Virus record (IMG/VR): IMGVR_UViG_3300024239_000354
Length of the DNA stretch: 20,000 bases
Strand: one strand, 5' to 3'
Source of the DNA: an uncultured virus (IMG/VR IMGVR_UViG_3300024239_000354)
Lineage: Duplodnaviria > Heunggongvirae > Uroviricota > Caudoviricetes
The stretch's first letter is position 1. Every line of letters starts with the position of its first letter. This document shows, piece after piece, positions 915 through 16,623 of this stretch. The notes beneath the pieces were generated by a model. It was not told where the DNA came from, ran no database searches, and saw only the letters and a program-made list of their open reading frames with translations. A program made the translations under genes and the position numbers.

Positions 915-1529
915 TTATTTGGTCTGTGTGTCGTGAACGATTTGGGTAGCGCCACCAAACAATACGTCAATAACACTCCTGCACCGCTCATCTAACGGAC
1001 CTGTGAGGTGGATGATGTTGTCCAGCTTGTGAAGCCGCGTAAACGTTATCAGCATGTGGTCGTCAAGTTGGTTGATGTCATCCTGGGTTTGGTACCGAGT
1101 ACCGTCTTTCAGGATATTCTTATTGGCCTTGTAAGTTTCTTCCTTATCGAGCAGGAAGATGAAGTCATAACGACGCAAATAAAGGTCATCAAGCAGGTGT
1201 TTGTACATATCAGCAAGCACAAGGCGCTGCCGAGCGTCATTGTTGTCTGCATAAAGACATGCGTAGAAGTACGGCGTCAGGGTGCCTGAATCGGTGATGA
1301 TATAATCTACCGCATCAGGTACCGAATCTTCGATTCGACGCTGGTTTTCTAGGGTGCGGTATTGTTCCCATATATTCTTCATGGGACCATGGAGATTTAT
1401 ATCAGTACGAATCCATTCTGTAATGAGTTCGGCATTGATATGGCGCTTTTTCAGTGCCGATGTCACATCCAGTGTTAGGGTGGACTTACCGGAACCTGCC
1501 GGTCCAATGAAAGCGATTCGTTTAGTCAT
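915..1529 (-). CDS. NadR/Ttd14-like AAA-domain P-loop kinase (AAA_28-like)
   Basis: N-terminal RIAFIGPAGSGKST Walker A, EWIR motif, IITDS Walker-B-like strand, YDFIFLL and DGTR; GGGG RBS upstream of ATG 1529. Substrate cannot be determined. Confidence 0.7.
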   Translation of the reverse strand: MTKRIAFIGPAGSGKSTLTLDVTSALKKRHINAELITEWIRTDINLHGPMKNIWEQYRTLENQRRIEDSVPDAVDYIITDSGTLTPYFYACLYADNNDARQRLVLADMYKHLLDDLYLRRYDFIFLLDKEETYKANKNILKDGTRYQTQDDINQLDDHMLITFTRLHKLDNIIHLTGPLDERCRSVIDVLFGGATQIVHDTQTK

Positions 1530-1554
1530 GTGCAAGCCCCTTTGCTTGGGCTTT

Positions 1555-2366: not shown

Positions 2367-3650
2367 ATGGATTTTGTAACAAAAGCTGTAATCATTCATA
2401 AAGGCTTATATGACTATTCCTTGGTGGAATATACGAATTCATACACTAAAGTAAAAATTATTTGTAAAGAGCATGGAGTATTTGAACAACGCCCGGATTC
2501 GCATTTGAGTGGTAATGGATGCAAGCAGTGTTCTGCTGAAAAACGGCGAAGTAGTAATGGTGATTTTATTACTAAAGCTATTGCAGTACATGGCTGTTTA
2601 TATGATTACTCATTGGTTGAGTACAAAAGTGTCCATAACAAGGTAACAATTATTTGTCGGGAGCATGGAGAATTTGAACAATTTCCAAATAATCATTTGA
2701 GAGGATGTGGATGTCCCAAATGTAGAATAAAAACATCTGACCAATTCATTAATGAAGCGATTGCTATTCATAACGGCTTATATGATTATTCGTTGGTAGA
2801 CTATCGGAGAAGTGATGAAGGGGTATTAATTATTTGTAAACTACATGGACCATTTCGGCAAGAACCTAATAATCATTTGCGAGGCTATGGATGTCCCAAA
2901 TGCGCTGTAGACAGGAAACGATTTACTCAATTTGAATTTGTTAATGAATGCACAAATATCTATGGCACAAAGTATGATTATTCAGCCGTCGATTATGTTA
3001 ATTCTCAGACAAAAATTAAAATAGGGTGTCACACTCATGGGGTATTTGAAGTAACTCCGAATAATTTTTTACGTGGTTATGAATGCCAGTTCTGTAAAAA
3101 CAAAGACAAAAAGAAAGGGAGACGAATATCGTTATCAGAGTTTATTGAAGACTGTAGGTTGGTACATCAAGGAAAATATGACTATAGTTTGATAACGAAA
3201 TACACCAATAAGTCAGACAAACTGGATATTATTTGTCCAACACATGGCGTCTTTACACAAACTGCGTATATTCATAAAAGTGGTAAAGGGTGCCCGCGTT
3301 GTGTCCACCGTATATCAAAACCAGAAACCAAATGGTTAGATATGCTTGGGGTGGATATTCACCATCGAAACAAATATGTTCTTCTACCTGATGGAAAACG
3401 TTATCAGGTAGACGCCTACAATTCAGTGACTAATACCGTCTATGAATTTTTAGGAGACTATTGGCACGGCAACCCAAGCGTATTCCCACCAACACAAATG
3501 AATAAAAATGCGAAACGCACACATGGCGAGTTGTACGCCCGCACAATGAGGAAAATGAACCTGATTGCTCAGGAGTACAACCTGATATACATATGGGAGC
3601 AGGATTGGAAAAAGATGCTCGCAGAAACGACCCGACGCATCTCAAGCTGA
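2367..3650 (+). CDS. Putative homing endonuclease: five DUF723-like zinc-ribbon repeats plus a C-terminal Vsr/PD-(D/E)xK-like nuclease domain
   Basis: Five copies of YDYS.(V/I)..Y...C..HG.F...C..C. C-terminus VDAY...VYEFLGDYWHGNP...IYIWEQDW. Visibly AT-rich and oriented opposite to its neighbours. Confidence 0.8.
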   Translation: MDFVTKAVIIHKGLYDYSLVEYTNSYTKVKIICKEHGVFEQRPDSHLSGNGCKQCSAEKRRSSNGDFITKAIAVHGCLYDYSLVEYKSVHNKVTIICREHGEFEQFPNNHLRGCGCPKCRIKTSDQFINEAIAIHNGLYDYSLVDYRRSDEGVLIICKLHGPFRQEPNNHLRGYGCPKCAVDRKRFTQFEFVNECTNIYGTKYDYSAVDYVNSQTKIKIGCHTHGVFEVTPNNFLRGYECQFCKNKDKKKGRRISLSEFIEDCRLVHQGKYDYSLITKYTNKSDKLDIICPTHGVFTQTAYIHKSGKGCPRCVHRISKPETKWLDMLGVDIHHRNKYVLLPDGKRYQVDAYNSVTNTVYEFLGDYWHGNPSVFPPTQMNKNAKRTHGELYARTMRKMNLIAQEYNLIYIWEQDWKKMLAETTRRISS

Positions 3651-4263: not shown

Positions 4264-4302
4264 ATAAAAATGAGGGGTCGGACTTTCATCCGACCCCTCA
4301 TT
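4264..4302 (-). terminator. Intrinsic terminator of the kinase-amidase-vWA operon
   Basis: 14-bp stem AATGAGGGGTCGGA/TCCGACCCCTCATT (4269-4302), ending in a TTTTTATT run on the minus strand. Confidence 0.85.
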
Positions 4303-4371: not shown

Positions 4372-5154
4372 TCAGTTCCAGAAGCTCGCGCCCTTGGAGA
4401 ACGAAGCAGCAGACTGAGACGACCGCACTGCGCTTTGTGAGAACATGCGCATGACTTTGCGGACTTCGCTGGCGGTGGCGCCAGAGGTCATGATCCAGTC
4501 CTTCGGGATGCCCATTTCCTGGGCAATTTGCTCGTAAGCGACACCGCCATAGGTTTTGATGCCGTAGAAGGCGACGATGTGCTTCTCGGCGTTGATCATG
4601 TCATTGACGACCTTCGCCACGTCAGCGGCACGGGCACGGCTGGCATTGTCGTCGCCATCGGTGATGATCAGGTTGATCGAACGAGCCGCGACGCCCTGCT
4701 TGCTGAATTCCGCCACCTTGGCGATGGAGGTGCCCAGCATGACCAAGGATTGGTCGTACAGCGGGGTGCTGCCGCCGTTGGCTTGGTAGTTGCCGCGATC
4801 CAGCTTGGTGGCGCTCTTGACGCCCACAAACGGGAACAGCGTGCGCTTGCTGTACAGGTAGCTGGTGGACGCCAGGATGGAACTCGCCTGCTTGGAGTCC
4901 GACAGGGCGTCCAAGGTTAGGTTGTGACCTTCGATGATGGCATCCACCGCCTGGGACACCGAGCCGGTGTCATCGATCAGCAGGTTCATCAGGATCACGT
5001 CGTCGGCGGCGCCTACGTCATCGACACTGATGCCGAGCGCGGTCTGCATTTGGGCGTTGATATTCACGCCAGTCAGGATGTTCAGGCTGGCGGTGGTCAG
5101 ATCGCCATCGTCAGCCGCATTGCCCAGAAGGGCGTTGATGTTCTGTGAAGACAT
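4372..5154 (-). CDS. vWA-domain protein (TerY/YegL-like)
   Basis: MIDAS-like LLIDDTGS, GGSTPLYD and LIITDGDDN. GGAG 9 nt before ATG 5154; ATG 5169 is an alternative start. Confidence 0.85.
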   Translation of the reverse strand: MSSQNINALLGNAADDGDLTTASLNILTGVNINAQMQTALGISVDDVGAADDVILMNLLIDDTGSVSQAVDAIIEGHNLTLDALSDSKQASSILASTSYLYSKRTLFPFVGVKSATKLDRGNYQANGGSTPLYDQSLVMLGTSIAKVAEFSKQGVAARSINLIITDGDDNASRARAADVAKVVNDMINAEKHIVAFYGIKTYGGVAYEQIAQEMGIPKDWIMTSGATASEVRKVMRMFSQSAVRSSQSAASFSKGASFWN

Positions 5155-5209
5155 TGTTTTTTGCTCCATACTCGATCTCTTGGGGGCGGGGTTTCCCCCG
5201 CCGCTCCGC

Positions 5210-6253
5210 TTAGAGATCGATGCCCTTCCAGTTGCGCATGTCGTCGGTGGACTTGACCAGCTTCATGCCCGCCGCCTCGTACCGTTGGAAAGCGGCTTCG
5301 GCATTCGGGGTGAAGTCAGCGATGAAACCGCCCTGACCATTCGGCACCGTCACTGCCGACATGCAATCGGTCAGCACGTAGACCTTCTCGGCAAGCGAGG
5401 GGTCTTTCGCCAGAATATCGGTCAGCAGATCATCGACCGAGGACATGACGCAGTGGGAGGCAGCCTGCCCGGCGACCACCACGTAGTCGTTGTTCAGCAG
5501 GGTTTCGATCAGACGGGTGTTCTTCTGATCCAGCGCCTTGCCGTCCCAGCGGGTCAGCACCTCGGCACCGAACACCGAATAACACTCGGTCCAGGCGTTC
5601 TGTCCCTTGAAGGCGATCTCGCGCTGATCGCCACGTACCAGGGCGTGGAACGCCGTGGCTTCATCGATCACGCCCGCCAAGGCATAACCGGCGCTGCCAG
5701 CGAGGCAGTGGAAGGGCCACAGGTACAGGGTGTACTTGCCCGCCTTCTTCAGTTCCTCGGCGTAGAACTTCGCTTGATTGCGCGCCCAGGTGTAGTTGCC
5801 ACCGGCACAGGCAGCCGCCGCAACCGGCGAGACGACGTACTTACCCGAGGCGATGTCGTCCACCGAGATTTCGGTGAAGGGCGGGACGGGGTTGCCGTCA
5901 GCATCGTTCCAGAACGTCGAGAAGAAAATCTGGAACGGGAAGTGGGTGTCCATGGTGAGGACAGTGTGGGTGATCAGACCCACGTTCTTGTACAGGAATT
6001 CCGCGATGCGCACGTTGTCATCGATGGCGCCGGTACCCGAGCGACCACCCACGTACAGGGTGCCCTTCGGAAAGCAGAAATCCTTTTGAAGGTCGATGCC
6101 CAGGAACGCCACCTTCTTGCGGGCATCCTTGATGCTGGTGAAGTTGCTCGACTTGGCAAGGGCGGTAGCTGCCGCCAACAACTTACCGAAGTCGGGAGCG
6201 TAGTTGAAATCGGCGGCGTTGCCAGCCGAAAAGAAATTCGGAATTGCGTTCAT
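5210..6253 (-). CDS. Nicotinamidase/isochorismatase-family cysteine hydrolase (long PncA-like)
   Basis: IDLQKDF catalytic Asp, MDTH metal ligands, LWPFHC, FKG catalytic Lys and GQAASHCV catalytic Cys; SD AAGGAG. Confidence 0.85.
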   Translation of the reverse strand: MNAIPNFFSAGNAADFNYAPDFGKLLAAATALAKSSNFTSIKDARKKVAFLGIDLQKDFCFPKGTLYVGGRSGTGAIDDNVRIAEFLYKNVGLITHTVLTMDTHFPFQIFFSTFWNDADGNPVPPFTEISVDDIASGKYVVSPVAAAACAGGNYTWARNQAKFYAEELKKAGKYTLYLWPFHCLAGSAGYALAGVIDEATAFHALVRGDQREIAFKGQNAWTECYSVFGAEVLTRWDGKALDQKNTRLIETLLNNDYVVVAGQAASHCVMSSVDDLLTDILAKDPSLAEKVYVLTDCMSAVTVPNGQGGFIADFTPNAEAAFQRYEAAGMKLVKSTDDMRNWKGIDL

Positions 6254-6336
6254 CTTCGTTTTTCTCCTTCCTTCCTTCCGTGGTTTGGGGACGACCTAAC
6301 GCGGTGTTGGTAATCCCCGATGACCGGAAAGTAAGG

Positions 6337-8253
6337 TCATGCGAGTTTGAGCCTTGTAACTTCGTGGCGGTTTACCACGAAGATTCCACTTACATGCCCC
6401 TGGTCATATGCCGGGAACAAATGATCACCCGCTTTCACGAACGGTTCCGTGTCAGGAAATTCTTTCGTCACGGCGGGTACACCATTACTTAGCTCGACCC
6501 GGACAATACCATCATCCGTCGATGCCATCAAGAAATTTTTCACAACTTTTCCGGAATTGTCGCGAATCGCTACCGCACACTTTCCGCGCAAAGTGCCCAG
6601 CCACGTTCCATCGCCATCTTCAGTTTCGTCCTGCCCGATCAGTTTACCGCTATCGGACACCACGAAGACCTTGTTGATGGTGCGACCACCGGTCTGCGCT
6701 TTCACGAAAAACCAGCAAAGGTCGTCCGAGAAAGCACAATCCGCGTCGATGATCTGACCCTGGATCGGGGGCAGGTTCACCGTATTGTTCAGCACACCGT
6801 TGATCGTGGGAAACACGAAGGCGCCATAGAAGTCGCCCGCACGGTAGTAACCGAAACCGAACTTTTCACCCGTCCAGAACTGGGTCTGTCCTTTCAGGAC
6901 ATCACCGACTTTTTCCGGGTAGCCGAGGCGGCTATCGCGCATCAGCACGCCATCCTCGATCCACAGACGGGTGTTGCCCGTGCCGCCGATCACCGGGGTA
7001 TTCCCCAGACGGTCCACCGACTTGCGTTCCGGCGGGTTGCTCGGGTCCAAGGTGATCATGTTCGCGCCGCGTCCAATGATGGTGCGGTCGCCATTGATGC
7101 GGTACCGCATGCCGTTCTCGGGCGTACCACCGGTCACCGACATATCCCCATCACGGCGGAAATCGGCGCCATCGTGGTACAACCAGCGCAGCTTGCCGTT
7201 CTGAACCGACGCATAGAGGATCGTGCCGGTGGTTTTGAACACCGTCGTGGCAGTAACAGTACCCCGAATGCGGACAGTCTGGACGACTTTACCAATTCCT
7301 TTCTGACCACATGCCGGGCAGATGGTTTTAGCATGGACCAAACCACAATCCTTGCACGTGATCCATTCCAGTTGTTCGAGAAGAAGGCGTGGGAATTCGC
7401 CGCGCTGATCTTTCTCAAAGACCTGAACGAAGTAATGCAGCAGATCATCCGGCAGCGTATCCAACCGGTTCGCCGGTTTCGGATATTGGACTTCCGGGTG
7501 GAAGACTGTAATCCGATTCAGCGGACGCCGATCATTGCCCATTTTCTTGGTTTTGTCGGCGGGTTTGTACACACCACCATAGGGACCAACGAAGAGAAGT
7601 GACTGAAACAGCATCACGTTGTACGCATACCAGTCCGAAAGGCTATTATGCGGCTTCACCAACATCATTTTGTCGGGAGCGCACAACACCGGGTCCACGA
7701 ATTTTGCCGTGAACACATGGCACTGGTAGGGACCGAACTGCATGGAATCGGCGTCGATGAAGAACGCATCGGTGCCGACGACCATTACGTTGAGATCGTT
7801 GAAGTCACCGATCACCACACCGGACTTGTGGATACCGGAAATGGTGGTGTGCATGTTCAAGAAAATCTTGTTGATGTTCGGCTGGGGAACGTTCTGCCGG
7901 AATTGGCGTTCGCCATAACGCAGCAGCACTTCACCCTTCGCCAGGAAGTCCATGACGTAGCCGACAATCGGACCCTTGGGGTCCAAGACCAGCGGATGAC
8001 CTTTGGAATTGGGCGCGACGACGTTCAGCGGAAGGTTCTGCGGGAACGCCGGAAGCTTCAGTTGATGCTCCGCAATGCGGGCAATCGCAGCGTCCTTTTC
8101 CGGTTGGGTCAAGAGATCGGGGTGATGCGGACCCTTGAATACTTTGGCAACGGTGCCGTTACCCAAGTCATAAACGTCCGCCTCACCACCTTTACCAATG
8201 GCATTGGTCGGGTCCAATTTCAGCTTCTTGCCGCCAATGACGACCGTAGCCAT
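6337..8253 (-). CDS. Ser/Thr protein kinase, YegI/TerY-P-like, with Zn ribbon and beta-rich C-terminal domain
   Basis: G-loop GKGGEADVY, VAK lysine, catalytic loop VIGDFNDLNVMV and IDADS in place of DFG (YegI-like). CKDC...CPAC zinc ribbon. Start chosen at ATG 8253 after a GGGA SD. Confidence 0.85.
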   Translation of the reverse strand: MATVVIGGKKLKLDPTNAIGKGGEADVYDLGNGTVAKVFKGPHHPDLLTQPEKDAAIARIAEHQLKLPAFPQNLPLNVVAPNSKGHPLVLDPKGPIVGYVMDFLAKGEVLLRYGERQFRQNVPQPNINKIFLNMHTTISGIHKSGVVIGDFNDLNVMVVGTDAFFIDADSMQFGPYQCHVFTAKFVDPVLCAPDKMMLVKPHNSLSDWYAYNVMLFQSLLFVGPYGGVYKPADKTKKMGNDRRPLNRITVFHPEVQYPKPANRLDTLPDDLLHYFVQVFEKDQRGEFPRLLLEQLEWITCKDCGLVHAKTICPACGQKGIGKVVQTVRIRGTVTATTVFKTTGTILYASVQNGKLRWLYHDGADFRRDGDMSVTGGTPENGMRYRINGDRTIIGRGANMITLDPSNPPERKSVDRLGNTPVIGGTGNTRLWIEDGVLMRDSRLGYPEKVGDVLKGQTQFWTGEKFGFGYYRAGDFYGAFVFPTINGVLNNTVNLPPIQGQIIDADCAFSDDLCWFFVKAQTGGRTINKVFVVSDSGKLIGQDETEDGDGTWLGTLRGKCAVAIRDNSGKVVKNFLMASTDDGIVRVELSNGVPAVTKEFPDTEPFVKAGDHLFPAYDQGHVSGIFVVNRHEVTRLKLA

Positions 8254-8310
8254 TTGCAAGTTCCCCTTGTGTTGCATCTACTACACCGATGCAATAGCTG
8301 TGAGTTACGA

Positions 8311-8339
8311 AGAGTATCAGGCAGACTCAGGGTTGTCAA
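8311..8339 (-). promoter_or_regulatory. Sigma70-type promoter for the kinase operon
   Basis: TTGACA-N17-TACTCT, embedded in the 3' end of the Pth2 gene. Confidence 0.7.
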
Positions 8340-8742
8340 CCCGTAGAAAGTCAGAATCCTTCAGTAATTGTAGACGCTTTACTATTGGGTCTGCTTCACG
8401 TTTGGTCGTCGGACCCAACCCAAGCATGGTGACGGTGCCGGGGTCAATGCAGGTACGCCCGGCATCCTGAACCATGTAATAGGGAATGCCGAGTTCTTCC
8501 GCTTTGGTAATAGCCTTCTCGATCACTTCGAGATTCTTTGCCCGGAGCGCGACCTTCCCTTGCCCATCATGGTTCACATACGTTTCGGCGCGAACCGGGT
8601 CGGTTTTGAAGCATTTGTACCATGCGTTGAGAATGGCATGCCCGGCTTGACCCAACGCCTTGCTCAGCGTCATGCCAGGAATATCCGTGCGAACCAGCAT
8701 GTACATGCGCGGTTCGTCATCCACATTGAAATCGGTAGCCAT
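8317..8742 (-). CDS. Peptidyl-tRNA hydrolase, Pth2 (archaeal/eukaryotic-type) family
   Basis: MYMLVRTDI.GMT.SKALGQAGHA...GQGKVAL...VQDAGRT.IDPGTVT.LGLGP signature. ATG 8742 lies 1 nt after the upstream TAA. Confidence 0.9.
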   Translation of the reverse strand: MATDFNVDDEPRMYMLVRTDIPGMTLSKALGQAGHAILNAWYKCFKTDPVRAETYVNHDGQGKVALRAKNLEVIEKAITKAEELGIPYYMVQDAGRTCIDPGTVTMLGLGPTTKREADPIVKRLQLLKDSDFLRVDNPESA

Positions 8743-8743
8743 T

Positions 8744-9031
8744 TTAAACCTTCGTCTTTCTCCACGCCTCGAAGGCGTCGGCGTCAATCTCTAACGCAAA
8801 GAACACATCGCAGTCCAGGCATTCATTCTCGTCTTCATGACCGACGAAATTGAATTCCCACCGACCCTTGCAGTTCTCGTTGAGCCATGCGCCATATTCG
8901 GTTTCATTCAAGTCCCAGGCAGCGGTGACGGTATCGCGCCCATTACGACGGATGCCTTTCTAGCACGGCGGGATTTTGGGGAGCCGAACGGTTCGGGACC
9001 ACCAGACGCAGCCGATAATTGCCATACCCAT
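8744..9031 (-). pseudogene. 95-codon phage gene interrupted by one in-frame TAG (pseudogene or amber read-through gene)
   Basis: Manual translation: MGMAIIGCVWWSRTVRLPKIPPC*KGIRRNGRDTVTAAWDLNETEYGAWLNENCKGRWEFNFVGHEDENECLDCDVFFALEIDADAFEAWRKTKV. Fills the PP2C-Pth2 gap exactly; TAG at 8960-8962. Confidence 0.65.
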
Positions 9032-9033
9032 GT

Positions 9034-9975
9034 TTAGGGCATCCGACGACAAGAAATCAGCGTCGAATCGTCATGCAATATGCCATGCTTCTTGACGATG
9101 GCGACGTTATCGCGGTCGATCCGGTACTTGCTTTCGTTCAGTAAGTTCAGGCGCCGTTGAGCTTTCGGACTCACCCGCAGAATCTCGCCATTCTCGCCCT
9201 TCGCCAGCATCATGTTTTCGTGCCAGAACTGCGCCAGGGAGCCGACCGTATCACCACCGGCAGCCTTCAATTCGGCTTTCTCGATGATATCGGTGCAGCC
9301 ATCGGTACCGACCAACAGGCTCTCCACCTCGGCGGTCGGAATGCTCTTCTGCACGGTGAAGCGCAGAAGGTCCGGGTTCGTGGTGTCGAGCGCAGTGCCG
9401 GTGAGCGCGTAGGTCATGTAGACCGGGCGATTACCTTCCATCGGCGGAATAACCGTCACTTCGCCATTGAGGGCGAATACGCCGTCACCCAGCGAGAAAA
9501 TGTGGGTCATTTCCGGCGTCATCACGAACCCGACCACCGTAAACAGCAGGCAGTCCGATATCAACGCCTTCATTTCGTCGCTCGGACCCATGGCACCCAC
9601 AAGTTCATTGATGTAGTGCAGGGTCGCCGTGCGTGCCCATTCCAGATGCTCGGTGAATGGGATGGTTTCTGTCCGGGTGGGGATGTCCACCTCGTTACGC
9701 CATTCAACGAACGTTTTCTCACGCACCGGGACTTGGCGCGTCTGAACCTGATGCAGGGCGTAGAATAGTTTGTTCGCGATGATCCGCGAACCCAGCCGCG
9801 AGCCGAGTTCCGAGTGCCCGCCTGACCCACACCCATCGCTTACGATACCGACGATGCACGTGTCATCGAAGCGCAGCGAGTAGGCGTCTTGGTTGTTATG
9901 AAACCCCGGCTGATCCGGTTTGATATGCTCGGTACCCGCGATGGACGCGGGGGCAAATCGAAACTGGTTCAACAT
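9034..9975 (-). CDS. PP2C-family protein phosphatase (YegK/PphC-like)
   Basis: GTEH...NNQDA, GIVSDGCGS, SELGS, SLGDG, LVGTDG and DDSTL motifs. AGGA SD before ATG 9975; ATG 10023 could be a leaderless start. Confidence 0.88.
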   Translation of the reverse strand: MLNQFRFAPASIAGTEHIKPDQPGFHNNQDAYSLRFDDTCIVGIVSDGCGSGGHSELGSRLGSRIIANKLFYALHQVQTRQVPVREKTFVEWRNEVDIPTRTETIPFTEHLEWARTATLHYINELVGAMGPSDEMKALISDCLLFTVVGFVMTPEMTHIFSLGDGVFALNGEVTVIPPMEGNRPVYMTYALTGTALDTTNPDLLRFTVQKSIPTAEVESLLVGTDGCTDIIEKAELKAAGGDTVGSLAQFWHENMMLAKGENGEILRVSPKAQRRLNLLNESKYRIDRDNVAIVKKHGILHDDSTLISCRRMP

Positions 9976-10031
9976 GATCGGGCTTCCTGTGATGCTTCGA
10001 TGGGATGCTACCTTAAGCAGCATTTTAAAAA

Positions 10032-10060
10032 GTATTAGATAAATATCCCAGGGTTGTCAA
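10032..10060 (-). promoter_or_regulatory. Sigma70-type promoter for the phosphatase operon
   Basis: TTGACA-N17-TAATAC; shares TTGACAACCCTG with the kinase promoter. Confidence 0.6.
10038..10045 (+). promoter_or_regulatory. Putative late promoter (GATAAATA) for the structural genes
   Basis: One mismatch to T4 late TATAAATA, about 57 nt upstream of ATG 10103. TAAATA cores also precede the genes at 2367, 13828, 16623 and 18650. Confidence 0.5.
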
Positions 10061-14642: not shown

Positions 14643-15206
14643 TCACTTTTTTGCGGCTTTGATTACCGCAAGCATATCGCGCCCCGCGAGGGTGATCGAC
14701 TGTTCAAAAATGATTTCCATACCGATCTGACTGATCAGACTTTCTATCACTTCACGACCATTTTGAGCGTGGGTTACTTCACGACCACGGAATTTTACCT
14801 TGATCTTGACCTTATCGCCATCCTCAAGGAATTCCTTGGTTTTGCGTGCCTTGATGGAAATATCGTTATCATCAGTCACAGGGCGAAGTTGGATTTCGCG
14901 AACGTGAACCTCATTAGCACGAGCTTTTTGACGTTCGGCGCGTTCACGCTTTTCCTTTTCAAATTTGTACTTCCCGTGGTCGAGTATCTTGCAGACCGGG
15001 GTATCCCCATCCGCGATCAAGACCAAATCCAGACCAAGATTACGGGCGCGATCTAATGCCTCCCGTCGAGAAATGATTTCGCTACCATTGTCGCTGACAA
15101 CACGAACTTGTTGGGCGCGAATGGCGTCGTTGATCATATCTCCGTGTACTTCTCGTTTCATGTTATCCTTTCTGAAGGCGTCCTGACTAAGTTTCAATGT
15201 GGACAT
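14643..15206 (-). CDS. infC: Translation initiation factor IF-3
   Basis: INDAIRA.QVRVV...EAL..A...GLDLVLI...PVCKILDHGKYKFE...REIQLRP.TD.ND...FLEDGDKVKI.VKFRGRE. Start at ATG 15206 or 15161. Confidence 0.95.
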   Translation of the reverse strand: MSTLKLSQDAFRKDNMKREVHGDMINDAIRAQQVRVVSDNGSEIISRREALDRARNLGLDLVLIADGDTPVCKILDHGKYKFEKEKRERAERQKARANEVHVREIQLRPVTDDNDISIKARKTKEFLEDGDKVKIKVKFRGREVTHAQNGREVIESLISQIGMEIIFEQSITLAGRDMLAVIKAAKK

Positions 15207-15320
15207 TTGTTGATCCCGGTCTTGATTGAATTTTGAAATGGGAAACCACGAGAGTAATACCCTCGTGGCTGTATGGTACTATTAGATAGTATGCATGTTT
15301 TCCCATGGTCGTTCGACCAA

Positions 15321-15349
15321 ACTCTACGGGGCGTTGAAGCGGTAGTCAA
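15321..15349 (-). promoter_or_regulatory. Sigma70-type promoter for infC-CYTH
   Basis: TTGACT-N17-TAGAGT on the minus strand immediately after the clpX stop. Confidence 0.6.
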
Positions 15350-15354
15350 CAAGA

Positions 15355-16623
15355 TTACGCCGGTTCGCTCTGCTCGGTTTGTTCGGTCATAAAAACCTTC
15401 AACGGTTCTGCTTCACCACGTACCACTTCCCCACTAATCACAACCTTGCTGATACCCTGATCATGATAGTCGGGGAGGTGATATTGAACCGGTAAAAGGC
15501 ATCCTTCCATCACGCTGCGTAGACCACGAGCGCCGGTTTTGCGGGTTTTGCAAGTCTTTGCAACTTCGGTGAGGGCATTTTCTGTAAATTCCAGACCAAC
15601 CTTTTCGAGACTGAACATCTTGCTAAACTGTTTTACCAGAGCGTTCTTCGGTTCGGTCAAAATTTGGACAAGCTGTTCTTCGGATAGATCGTTCACATGA
15701 GTGTGAACCGGGAACCGACCGATGAATTCCGGTATCATACCGAACTTGATGAGGTCGCTTGGTTCCAGGCGGCGCAGAAGATTCGCGGTGTCTTCGTCGG
15801 TGCGTTCCTTTGAGTGCTTCACCGTGGCGTTGAAGCCAATGCTGCCTTTGGGTGAAATGCGTTTGTTGACGATTTCATCCAACCCGACAAACGCACCTGA
15901 TGCAATGAACAGGATGTTGCGGGTATCGACGGTGAGAAATTCCTGCTGCGGGTGCTTACGACCCCCCTGCGGTGGAACACGGCACACGGTGCCTTCGACC
16001 ATCTTCAATAGCGCCTGCTGCACACCCTCGCCCGACACATCGCGGGTGATCGACGGGCTGTCGGACTTGCGGCTAATTTTGTCGATTTCATCAATGAAGA
16101 TGATGCCGCGCTGGGCTTTCTCGACGTTGTATTCGGCGTTCTGTAGCAGCTTTGCGATGATGCTCTCAACGTCATCACCCACATACCCGGCTTCGGTCAA
16201 CGTGGTGGCGTCGGCCATAGCGAACGGCACATCCAGCATCCGAGCAATGGATTGCGCCAACAGCGTCTTACCGCAGCCGGTCGGTCCAACCAGAAGAATA
16301 TTGGATTTTTCGATCTCCACATCATCGATGACGGGGTTCTGTAGGCGTTTATAGTGGTTATGAACTGCTACCGACATCACCATCTTCGCGTAATCCTGCC
16401 CAATCACATACTGGTCAAGGAATTCGTGAATTTGGCGCGGGGTAGGGGTTTGGTTATCCTTTGTGAGGATGGGTTTTTCCTCTTCTGCAATAATACCGTG
16501 GCACAATTCAATGCATTCATCGCAAATATAAACGTTTGGACCTGCAATCAGTTTTTTGACTTGATCCTGACGCTTAGAGCAGAACGAGCATTCCAGTGAC
16601 TTATCGTCTTTCTTATCGACCAT
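15355..16623 (-). CDS. clpX: ATP-dependent Clp protease ATP-binding subunit ClpX
   Basis: C4 zinc-binding domain (CSFC...ICDEC), Walker [13 protein letters not shown] pore loop, Walker [12 protein letters not shown] loop and IGF loop. Confidence 0.98.

Follow-up and report, generated by a model that had tools for sequence, protein, structure and literature searches.

Introduction

By its published definition a TerY-P module consists of a vWA protein, a PP2C phosphatase and a Ser/Thr kinase that bears a fused zinc ribbon; stand-alone defence has been reported for TerY-P-like modules whose kinase has an OB fold (PMC11090510, citing Gao 2020 for the latter). In the metabolism of nicotinamide adenine dinucleotide (NAD), the regulator NrtR recognizes a 21-bp palindrome with a GT-N7-AC core, its DNA binding in vitro is suppressed by ADP-ribose, and its regulon table comprises pncA, pncB, nadD/E, nadV, prs, niaP and an unknown pair, nrtX-nrtY (Rodionov et al. 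2008, PMC2330246). NAD+ is also a central battleground of bacteria and phages, and three phage NAD+ reconstitution pathways have been published, namely NARP1 (Adps and Namat), NARP2 (NadV and NMNAT) and NARP3 (PnuC and a NadR-like protein). In the present work we describe a gene cassette found in a stretch of 20,000 nucleotides (hereafter the window) from an uncultured Caudoviricetes virus (IMG/VR record IMGVR_UViG_3300024239_000354). The cassette encodes a PP2C phosphatase, a YegI-type kinase, a long nicotinamidase-like amidase and a vWA protein, and on balance it is probably a conserved nicotinamide-salvage unit of four genes that a phage has captured, provided with a phosphorylation switch and serving to sustain NAD+.

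Gene Content and Protein Folds of the Cassette

Inspection of open reading frames (ORFs) places five co-oriented genes on the minus strand between positions 4372 and 10023, in order of coordinates vWA, amidase, kinase, PTH2 and PP2C. An earlier note on this DNA, made from the letters alone, had listed four of them as co-oriented genes with intact catalytic motifs; the four genes are real and correctly placed, while the fifth gene of the operon, PTH2 at 8317-8787, was overlooked. The shorter gene starts preferred in that note are probably right, as the kinase from M9 and the vWA protein from M6 are the database forms and PP2C homologues start near M17. Overall, its observations are confirmed and its interpretation is supported in part. 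The features of the locus are as follows.

10031..10060, minus strand: sigma70-like candidate promoter TTGACA-18-AATACT, 10/12 matches, directly upstream of PP2C
9034..10023, minus strand: PP2C-type Ser/Thr phosphatase, 329-aa ORF (likely start M17, nt 9975; PF13672 PP2C_2, E 1.3e-14)
8317..8787, minus strand: PTH2-type peptidyl-tRNA hydrolase between PP2C and kinase (likely start ATG ~8739; PF01981, E 3e-26)
6337..8277, minus strand: YegI-type Ser/Thr kinase with zinc ribbon and predicted beta-propeller, 646-aa ORF (database form from M9, nt 8253, 638 aa)
7378..8250, minus strand: kinase domain, residues ~10-300 (YegI homology, invariant columns, Foldseek protein-kinase matches)
7309..7356, minus strand: four-Cys zinc ribbon (C308, C311, C320, C323), each Cys invariant in 68/68 sequences
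6343..7278, minus strand: all-beta C-terminal region of the kinase, ~29 strands (strand list of the AlphaFold2 model)
5210..6253, minus strand: nicotinamidase-like cysteine hydrolase, 347 aa (AlphaFold2 fold, structural matches, invariant residues)
4372..5169, minus strand: vWA-domain protein with MIDAS motif (likely start M6, nt 5154)
4269..4302, minus strand: predicted intrinsic terminator closing the operon, 15-bp stem with 8 GC pairs, then TTTTATT

The fold of the amidase points to its identity. With the AlphaFold2 model (63-row alignment, pLDDT 95.7) as query, the first ten Foldseek matches are without exception nicotinamidases or pyrazinamidases (2wta, E 1.9e-11). The same holds for the best 16 rows of VIA-align (Z 22.2-17.6), which extend from yeast Pnc1 (Z 22.2, root-mean-square deviation 2.9 over 212 residues) to Mycobacterium tuberculosis PncA (Z 17.6), other isochorismatase-like hydrolases reaching Z values of at most 17.4. 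Residues D54, K216 and C268, as well as D102, H104 and H182, are invariant in 63/63 sequences, and the motifs align with M. tuberculosis PncA around D8, WPPHC (H71) and C138. From the PncA literature we take the first three to be the catalytic triad and the second three to be metal ligands. Relatives of the protein carry the NCBI name "nicotinamidase". These matches agree with the nicotinamidase-like nature proposed earlier, and we infer that the enzyme converts nicotinamide to nicotinate. In four other loci the amidase ORF is larger, at ~580-600 aa, with an N-terminal extension of ~230 aa that has no Pfam or NCBIfam match (L015:8908-10650, L049:8925-10739, L051:8912-10648 and L076:8919-10670).

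The remaining three proteins form a TerY-P-like triad, as had been recognized before, and this is borne out by YegI homology (E 2e-13), the PP2C_2 match (E 1.3e-14), the vWA fold with its MIDAS and the four-Cys ribbon. Their catalytic motifs, like those of the amidase, are intact, since every column that is invariant among homologues is retained in the window protein. In PP2C, whose PF13672 match is above the family cut-off, these are the metal-binding Asp/Gly columns D46, D63, G64, D180, D241, D318 and D319 (68 homologues); its similarity to E. coli PphC is weak (E 7e-4). Over 283 aa the kinase domain shares 28% identity with E. coli YegI, and G30, K45, D158, N163, D175 and D177 are invariant in an alignment of 68 sequences; the Pfam Pkinase match, at E 4.9e-3, is under the gathering score. 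The AlphaFold2 model of the kinase (68-row alignment, pLDDT 93) comprises the kinase domain, the ribbon and an all-beta domain whose top Foldseek matches are LRRK2 kinase+WD40, Nup133 and the BPB propeller of DDB1. We read this last domain as a seven-bladed beta-propeller, the number of blades being taken from the strand list of the model. The vWA protein has no Pfam match, and the VWA model matches just 1/60 members of its family. Nevertheless, its ESM Atlas structure reaches TM scores of 0.69-0.78 with VWA, VWA_CoxE and vWA-TerF-like clusters (one of them 67% vWA-TerF-like), and the MIDAS residues D66, S70, T135 and D171 are invariant, with T at residue 68 in the window and S in the consensus. 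A three-chain complex prediction with the propeller domain, the vWA protein and the amidase as partner scored 0.01, which speaks neither for nor against binding.

Conservation of the Four-Gene Unit

The kinase belongs to a large family, with at least 1320 matches among 5.8 billion proteins and 853 clusters at E ≤ 1e-30 among 1.84 billion representatives. A scan of one genome per species with the kinase brought up relatives in 456 genomes or more, and the analysis continued with the best 80 of the 456. Partners were counted over 82 non-duplicate kinase-anchored loci, or 86 with duplicates. PP2C is present in all informative loci (77/77) and the vWA gene in 61/64, and the amidase lies between kinase and vWA in 69/75. 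All four genes in the same order, PP2C-kinase-nicotinamidase-vWA, occur in 67/86 loci (duplicates included). Three loci of a reverse scan anchored on the amidase have the alternative order amidase-vWA-PP2C-kinase. The amidase is thus conserved beside the triad, the point on which the earlier note had made its idea depend. Its view of the amidase as embedded specifically in the phage version does not hold: the amidase belongs to the core of a cassette present in at least 456 species' genomes. PP2C-kinase-nicotinamidase-vWA is a fixed and widespread unit, not a phage oddity.

Carriers of the unit include bacteria, metagenome-assembled genomes (MAGs) labelled as archaea, and huge phages. Firm cellular carriers, represented by isolate or complete genomes, are Nodosilinea PCC 7104, Leptolyngbya FACHB-321, Tumidithrix PCC 7403, Sorangium cellulosum and Minicystis rosea. 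In a quick IQ-TREE analysis of 74 kinase rows the cyanobacterial kinases form a single clade of 20 rows (support 100, starred). The amidase tree shows at least 5-6 switches between the state linked to the triad and the stand-alone state. No paper describing the four-gene unit was found in literature searches for its components.

NAD-Salvage Neighbourhood and Predicted NrtR-Type Operators

The neighbouring genes supply a metabolic context. In cellular copies the gene directly 5' of PP2C encodes NrtR (NUDIX + NrtR_WHD). Over the 82 loci we found NrtR in 45, nicotinate phosphoribosyltransferase (NAPRTase) in 18, NAD kinase or NadD-NadK in 14, ADP-ribosylglycohydrolase in 14 and NADAR/Nudix in 5, and 58/82 loci have at least one gene of the set NrtR, NAPRTase, NadK-like, ADP-ribosylglycohydrolase or NADAR. 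An ADP-ribose-pyrophosphatase-like Nudix gene is a further recurrent neighbour. The earlier suggestion of a coupling to nicotinamide/NAD+ metabolism was right in spirit, the cassette sitting in NAD-salvage loci under predicted NrtR control. In a cyanobacterial subgroup the ADP-ribosylglycohydrolase gene lies between PP2C and kinase (L026:6222-6995, L024, L025, L063 and L066). Another candidate neighbour family, "unk327", was rejected, as its matches run antisense over nrtR and it is most likely a shadow ORF produced by crude ORF picking.

The DNA in front of the cassette points in the same direction. Tandem GTGT-N7-ACAC palindromes stand at the 5' end of PP2C in 20/24 loci of the cyanobacterial clade, where 44 such sites occur in 348 kb, against 5.3 in shuffled sequences, and 42 of the 44 are at the PP2C 5' end. 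Among the other loci 31/55 have the motif, against 0.37 in shuffles. Of all 121 sites, 80 precede PP2C and 28 precede nrtR. The GTGT-N7-ACAC core matches the NrtR palindrome, which places the cellular copies behind predicted NrtR-type operators. In the parts of PMC2330246 covered, the regulon tables contain no kinase, phosphatase or vWA gene.

The window differs in this respect. Its 20 kb contain no GTGT-N7-ACAC site, no relaxed TGT-N7-ACA near the promoter and no NrtR homologue. As far as sequence can tell, the phage copy is stripped of NrtR control, with a putative promoter and terminator of its own and PTH2 apparently inserted. Promoter-like sites across the window number 4 against 4.5 expected, that is, chance level, and the candidate 5' of PP2C draws its support from its position. 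The hairpin 3' of the vWA gene (4302-4269) makes a strong predicted terminator. Of the promoters and terminator announced previously, the terminator and one well-placed promoter-like site stand, and the number of promoter-like sites carries no weight. PTH2 scores 83.8 bits with the NCBIfam Pth2 model, under the cut-off of 126, and no homologue of it is present in any of the 166 related loci. The GC content at third codon positions (GC3) is 0.67-0.80 in the four cassette genes and 0.33-0.60 in 15 other window genes, in line with the GC3 richness reported before, and PTH2, at 0.59, resembles the phage background. In cellular loci the cassette is likewise GC-richer than its flanks, and thus the GC3 excess in the window is in itself no proof of recent capture.

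Two minor features of the operon were also recorded on the minus strand. The 40-nt spacer between amidase and vWA overlaps a marginal GC-rich hairpin (5165-5215; free energy -21.4 kcal/mol, z -1.94) without a T-run, and the 246-nt gap between PP2C and PTH2 holds an unannotated open frame of 71 codons (8744-8959) in which a possible in-frame TTG start would give ~55 aa.

The Phage Setting and Other Viral Copies

The DNA around the cassette is jumbo-phage-like, as had been proposed. The adjacent 601-aa protein is ~40% identical to tail proteins in 53 records of jumbo Caulobacter, Brevundimonas, Agrobacterium and Sinorhizobium phages and matches phrog_8578 (E 4.9e-125). The window ClpX shares 59% identity with its counterpart in the 469-kb Sinorhizobium phage Phosso, and a further ORF has matches in jumbo phages of Xanthomonas and Stenotrophomonas. 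The further claims that this phage is lytic and the cassette early-expressed are not supported, as neither can be read from the window. The exact window kinase (P0001) is present on four contigs, the longest of 869,618 bp, a length that to our knowledge exceeds any published phage genome; the source of the window could be a free megaphage, a prophage or a chimeric assembly.

Relatives of the locus among known phages are scarce. Against 50,697 phage records, neither megablast of the region nor tblastn of the kinase (at 1e-5) gave a match, and a scan of viral contigs with the tail protein returned 0 loci; with no close phage relative found, there is no comparison by which to date the insertion. 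In the kinase tree the window groups with P0002 (support 100, starred), which together with P0122 represents relatives at 60-63% identity on another contig, of 252 kb. The next group consists of the Patescibacteria-labelled L040, L074, L042 and L044 (support 92, not starred), and the same four are neighbours in the amidase tree (clade of 11 rows, support 96, starred). Two IMG/VR lineages with the cassette, L002 (with L001) and L003 (with L004), are placed elsewhere on the kinase tree, and thus phages have acquired the unit more than once. In L003 a NAPRTase gene is directly 5' of PP2C. Among five viral loci checked, an operator-like site was found in L002 only, 5' of its amidase.

More distant versions occur in published huge phages. 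LR756500.1 has NadE 3 kb upstream, followed by amidase-vWA-PP2C-kinase, LR745208.1 has the same components over 7 kb, and LR756511.1 has amidase and vWA. The kinases of these phages have only the kinase domain in common with the cassette kinase family. The main text of the huge-phage paper (PMC7162821) makes no mention of nicotinamidase, NAD, vWA, PP2C or kinase.

Other genes of the window were recorded as well. ClpS, Hsp20, IF3 and ClpX are encoded on the minus strand at 602-2182 and 14643-16623, as cell-like proteostasis and translation genes in a non-bacterial arrangement; such a set is typical of very large phages. Adjoining the cassette on the plus strand (2367-3650) is an HNH/DUF723 gene of 37.5% GC (phrog_681, E 1.8e-86) that looks like a homing endonuclease. 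A P-loop protein (AAA_28; 915-1535, minus strand) matches weakly the ribosylnicotinamide-kinase part of NadR (TIGR01526 positions 160-314, E 2.6e-4), and a PDB search with it gave P-loop noise only. It may be that a further NAD-related gene lies here, 3 kb away from the cassette.

A Proposed Switch-Regulated Route for Nicotinamide Salvage

In this context, we put forward that the long nicotinamidase is the enzymatic output of the unit. It would turn nicotinamide, which departs as leaving group whenever NAD+ is cleaved, into nicotinate for the Preiss-Handler route, while the YegI-type kinase, PP2C and the vWA/MIDAS protein would form a reversible phosphorylation switch travelling with the enzyme. 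Because the long nicotinamidase also occurs alone, while the kinase subfamily is hardly ever without it, we read the triad as serving the enzyme. Kinase and PP2C may act in opposition on a phosphorylation state, and this state may control the enzyme or the vWA adaptor or both of them, with the propeller or the zinc ribbon possibly sensing the input. In cells the operon lies behind predicted NrtR operators. ADP-ribose would release NrtR from them, as reported in PMC2330246, so that breakdown of NAD+ would turn the operon on. The phage copy appears to have lost this control and to have gained a sigma70-like promoter, a terminator and the PTH2 insertion, so that it would be expressed on the phage's own schedule. 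Its use to the phage is most plausibly to keep the NAD+ supply going during infection.

Several observations weigh against this scenario. The amidase is not within reach in 6 kinase loci, mostly cyanobacterial, which have unrelated genes downstream. When 80 metagenome loci were anchored on the amidase instead, the kinase was found in 35/65 and the vWA gene in 35/61 informative loci, and thus the long nicotinamidase also exists alone and does not require the triad. A comparison of linked (104) and stand-alone (15) amidases found two weakly separating columns only and no candidate phosphorylation site. The amidase stays under curated cut-offs (PF00857, 21.2 bits against 27; NCBIfam PncA NF008623, 24 against 174). 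In two loci (L007 and L015) a second, shorter isochorismatase-family gene lies near the cassette, so that a substrate other than nicotinamide is possible. Near-identical kinase rows bear different phylum labels (L051/L061, L072/L073 and L041/L043), owing either to errors in binning or to mobile or phage contigs that these MAGs have in common; MAG taxonomy is unreliable here, and some "bacterial" contigs may be phages. Finally, Pfam finds no pncB, nadD or nadE in the 20-kb window, and the phage would have to rely on enzymes of its host or on genes beyond these 20 kb.

In an unlikely alternative scenario the removal of nicotinamide is itself the purpose, either relieving product inhibition of NAD+ consumers or denying the substrate to rivals that use NARP1 or NARP2, with the switch timing the removal. 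Both of these pathways start from nicotinamide, NrtR control links cellular expression to the products of NAD+ cleavage, ADP-ribosylglycohydrolase genes lie inside or beside the cassette in 14/82 loci, and the window has no downstream salvage genes. Nonetheless, the frequent neighbours NAPRTase, NadD-NadK and NadE argue that nicotinate is used rather than discarded, and nothing in our data bears directly on inhibition or competition.

Defence offers another explanation. The earlier note had raised an anti-phage or exclusion role, for which there is no evidence of its own here, the cassette lying in NAD-salvage loci and not in defence islands. In its explicit form, a TerY-P-type superinfection exclusion in which kinase, PP2C and vWA sense a competing infection and the amidase is the effector, we regard this as quite improbable. 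It would be in keeping with the fit of the triad to the published TerY-P definition and with the defence role of TerY-P-like modules with OB-fold kinases (PMC11090510, citing Gao 2020), with the YegI homology of the kinase domain, and with a patchy distribution and a GC content above that of the flanks in several genomes, as is often seen in mobile defence genes. However, among 150 flanking ORFs PADLOC found no recurrent known defence system, its repeated matches being the NrtR Nudix domain and NADAR, and the neighbours are NAD biosynthesis genes. The single clade of 20 cyanobacterial kinases suggests long residence rather than the turnover of islands. The cassette proteins themselves gave no PADLOC match at E ≤ 0.1, a weak argument since the E. 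coli controls PphC and YegL were also unmatched and the library may lack a suitable model.

That the cassette is mere passenger DNA, taken up recently as a bacterial operon and not under selection for any role in the phage, is very improbable. A GC3 that stands out from the phage background, the absence of the kinase from all 50,697 phage records and the lack of a close phage relative for locus comparison would fit this reading. Against it, all catalytic and structural invariants are intact, and the operon has acquired a phage-type putative promoter, a terminator and, by insertion, a gene whose composition resembles that of the phage. A relative at 60-63% identity exists on another contig, of 252 kb, versions of the cassette occur in no fewer than two further phage lineages and in three published huge phages, and cellular cassettes are GC-richer than their flanks as well.

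Comparison with Known Systems

The phage-captured salvage unit that we favour shares parts with four known systems. With TerY-P and the E. coli set YegL-PphC(YegK)-YegI it has in common a MIDAS vWA protein, a PP2C that is weakly like PphC, and a kinase with a C-terminal zinc ribbon and a YegI-like catalytic domain. Unlike TerY-P, it has a fourth core gene, the nicotinamidase, between kinase and vWA, and its neighbourhood is NAD salvage under NrtR rather than Ter, restriction or CoCoNuT genes. On these two features, the three-gene unit and the conflict-gene context, the cassette falls outside strict TerY-P membership. Further differences are the ~310-aa predicted beta-propeller after the ribbon of the kinase, a vWA protein without detectable sequence similarity to E. 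coli YegL, and a different gene order.

The amidase, in turn, has the fold of canonical PncA/Pnc1 (3v8e, 2wta and 3pl1) and conserves the Asp-Lys-Cys triad and the Asp/His/His metal ligands. In contrast with these enzymes of 180-216 aa it is ~350 aa long, being extended by ~45 residues at the N-terminus and carrying an insertion at residues ~105-175, and it is usually linked to the kinase/PP2C/vWA set. The cellular cassettes resemble NrtR regulons (nrtR-pncA-pncB and variants) in their adjacent nrtR, their tandem 5' palindromes and the pncB/nadD/nadE-type genes nearby. Relative to the regulon tables in the covered part of PMC2330246, the cassette adds a kinase, a phosphatase and a vWA protein, whereas the window copy has neither nrtR nor operator. 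TerY-P-type switches have so far been discussed in relation to tellurite resistance, metal sensing and defence, and the unit ties such a switch to a metabolic enzyme and the regulator NrtR. If this is true, it would provide the first concrete output for the TerY-P class, as well as a post-translational control of nicotinamide salvage that is unmentioned in the covered NAD-regulon literature; the phage copy suggests that the unit works, or at least is kept intact, without NrtR.

The NARP pathways are the closest phage counterparts, as they too are phage-borne genes acting on NAD+ breakdown products, and other phage cassettes lie beside NAPRTase (L003) or NadE (LR756500.1). None of the NARP gene pairs (Adps and Namat, NadV and NMNAT, PnuC and NadR-like) is found by Pfam among the 21 window ORFs, the sole hint being the weak NadR-like ORF at 915-1535. 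We tentatively raise the possibility, doubtful as it is at present, of a fourth phage NAD+ strategy: a switch-regulated entry into the Preiss-Handler route, free of NrtR in jumbo and huge phages, that would outlast NAD+-depleting immunity and possibly deny nicotinamide to rivals, and whose bacterial counterpart would be an unrecognised, ADP-ribose-triggered control of NAD salvage by Ser/Thr phosphorylation. Compared with NARP1-3, as far as the accounts covered describe them, such a strategy would stand apart by its use of a nicotinamidase and of a kinase/phosphatase switch, neither of which belongs to any of the three.

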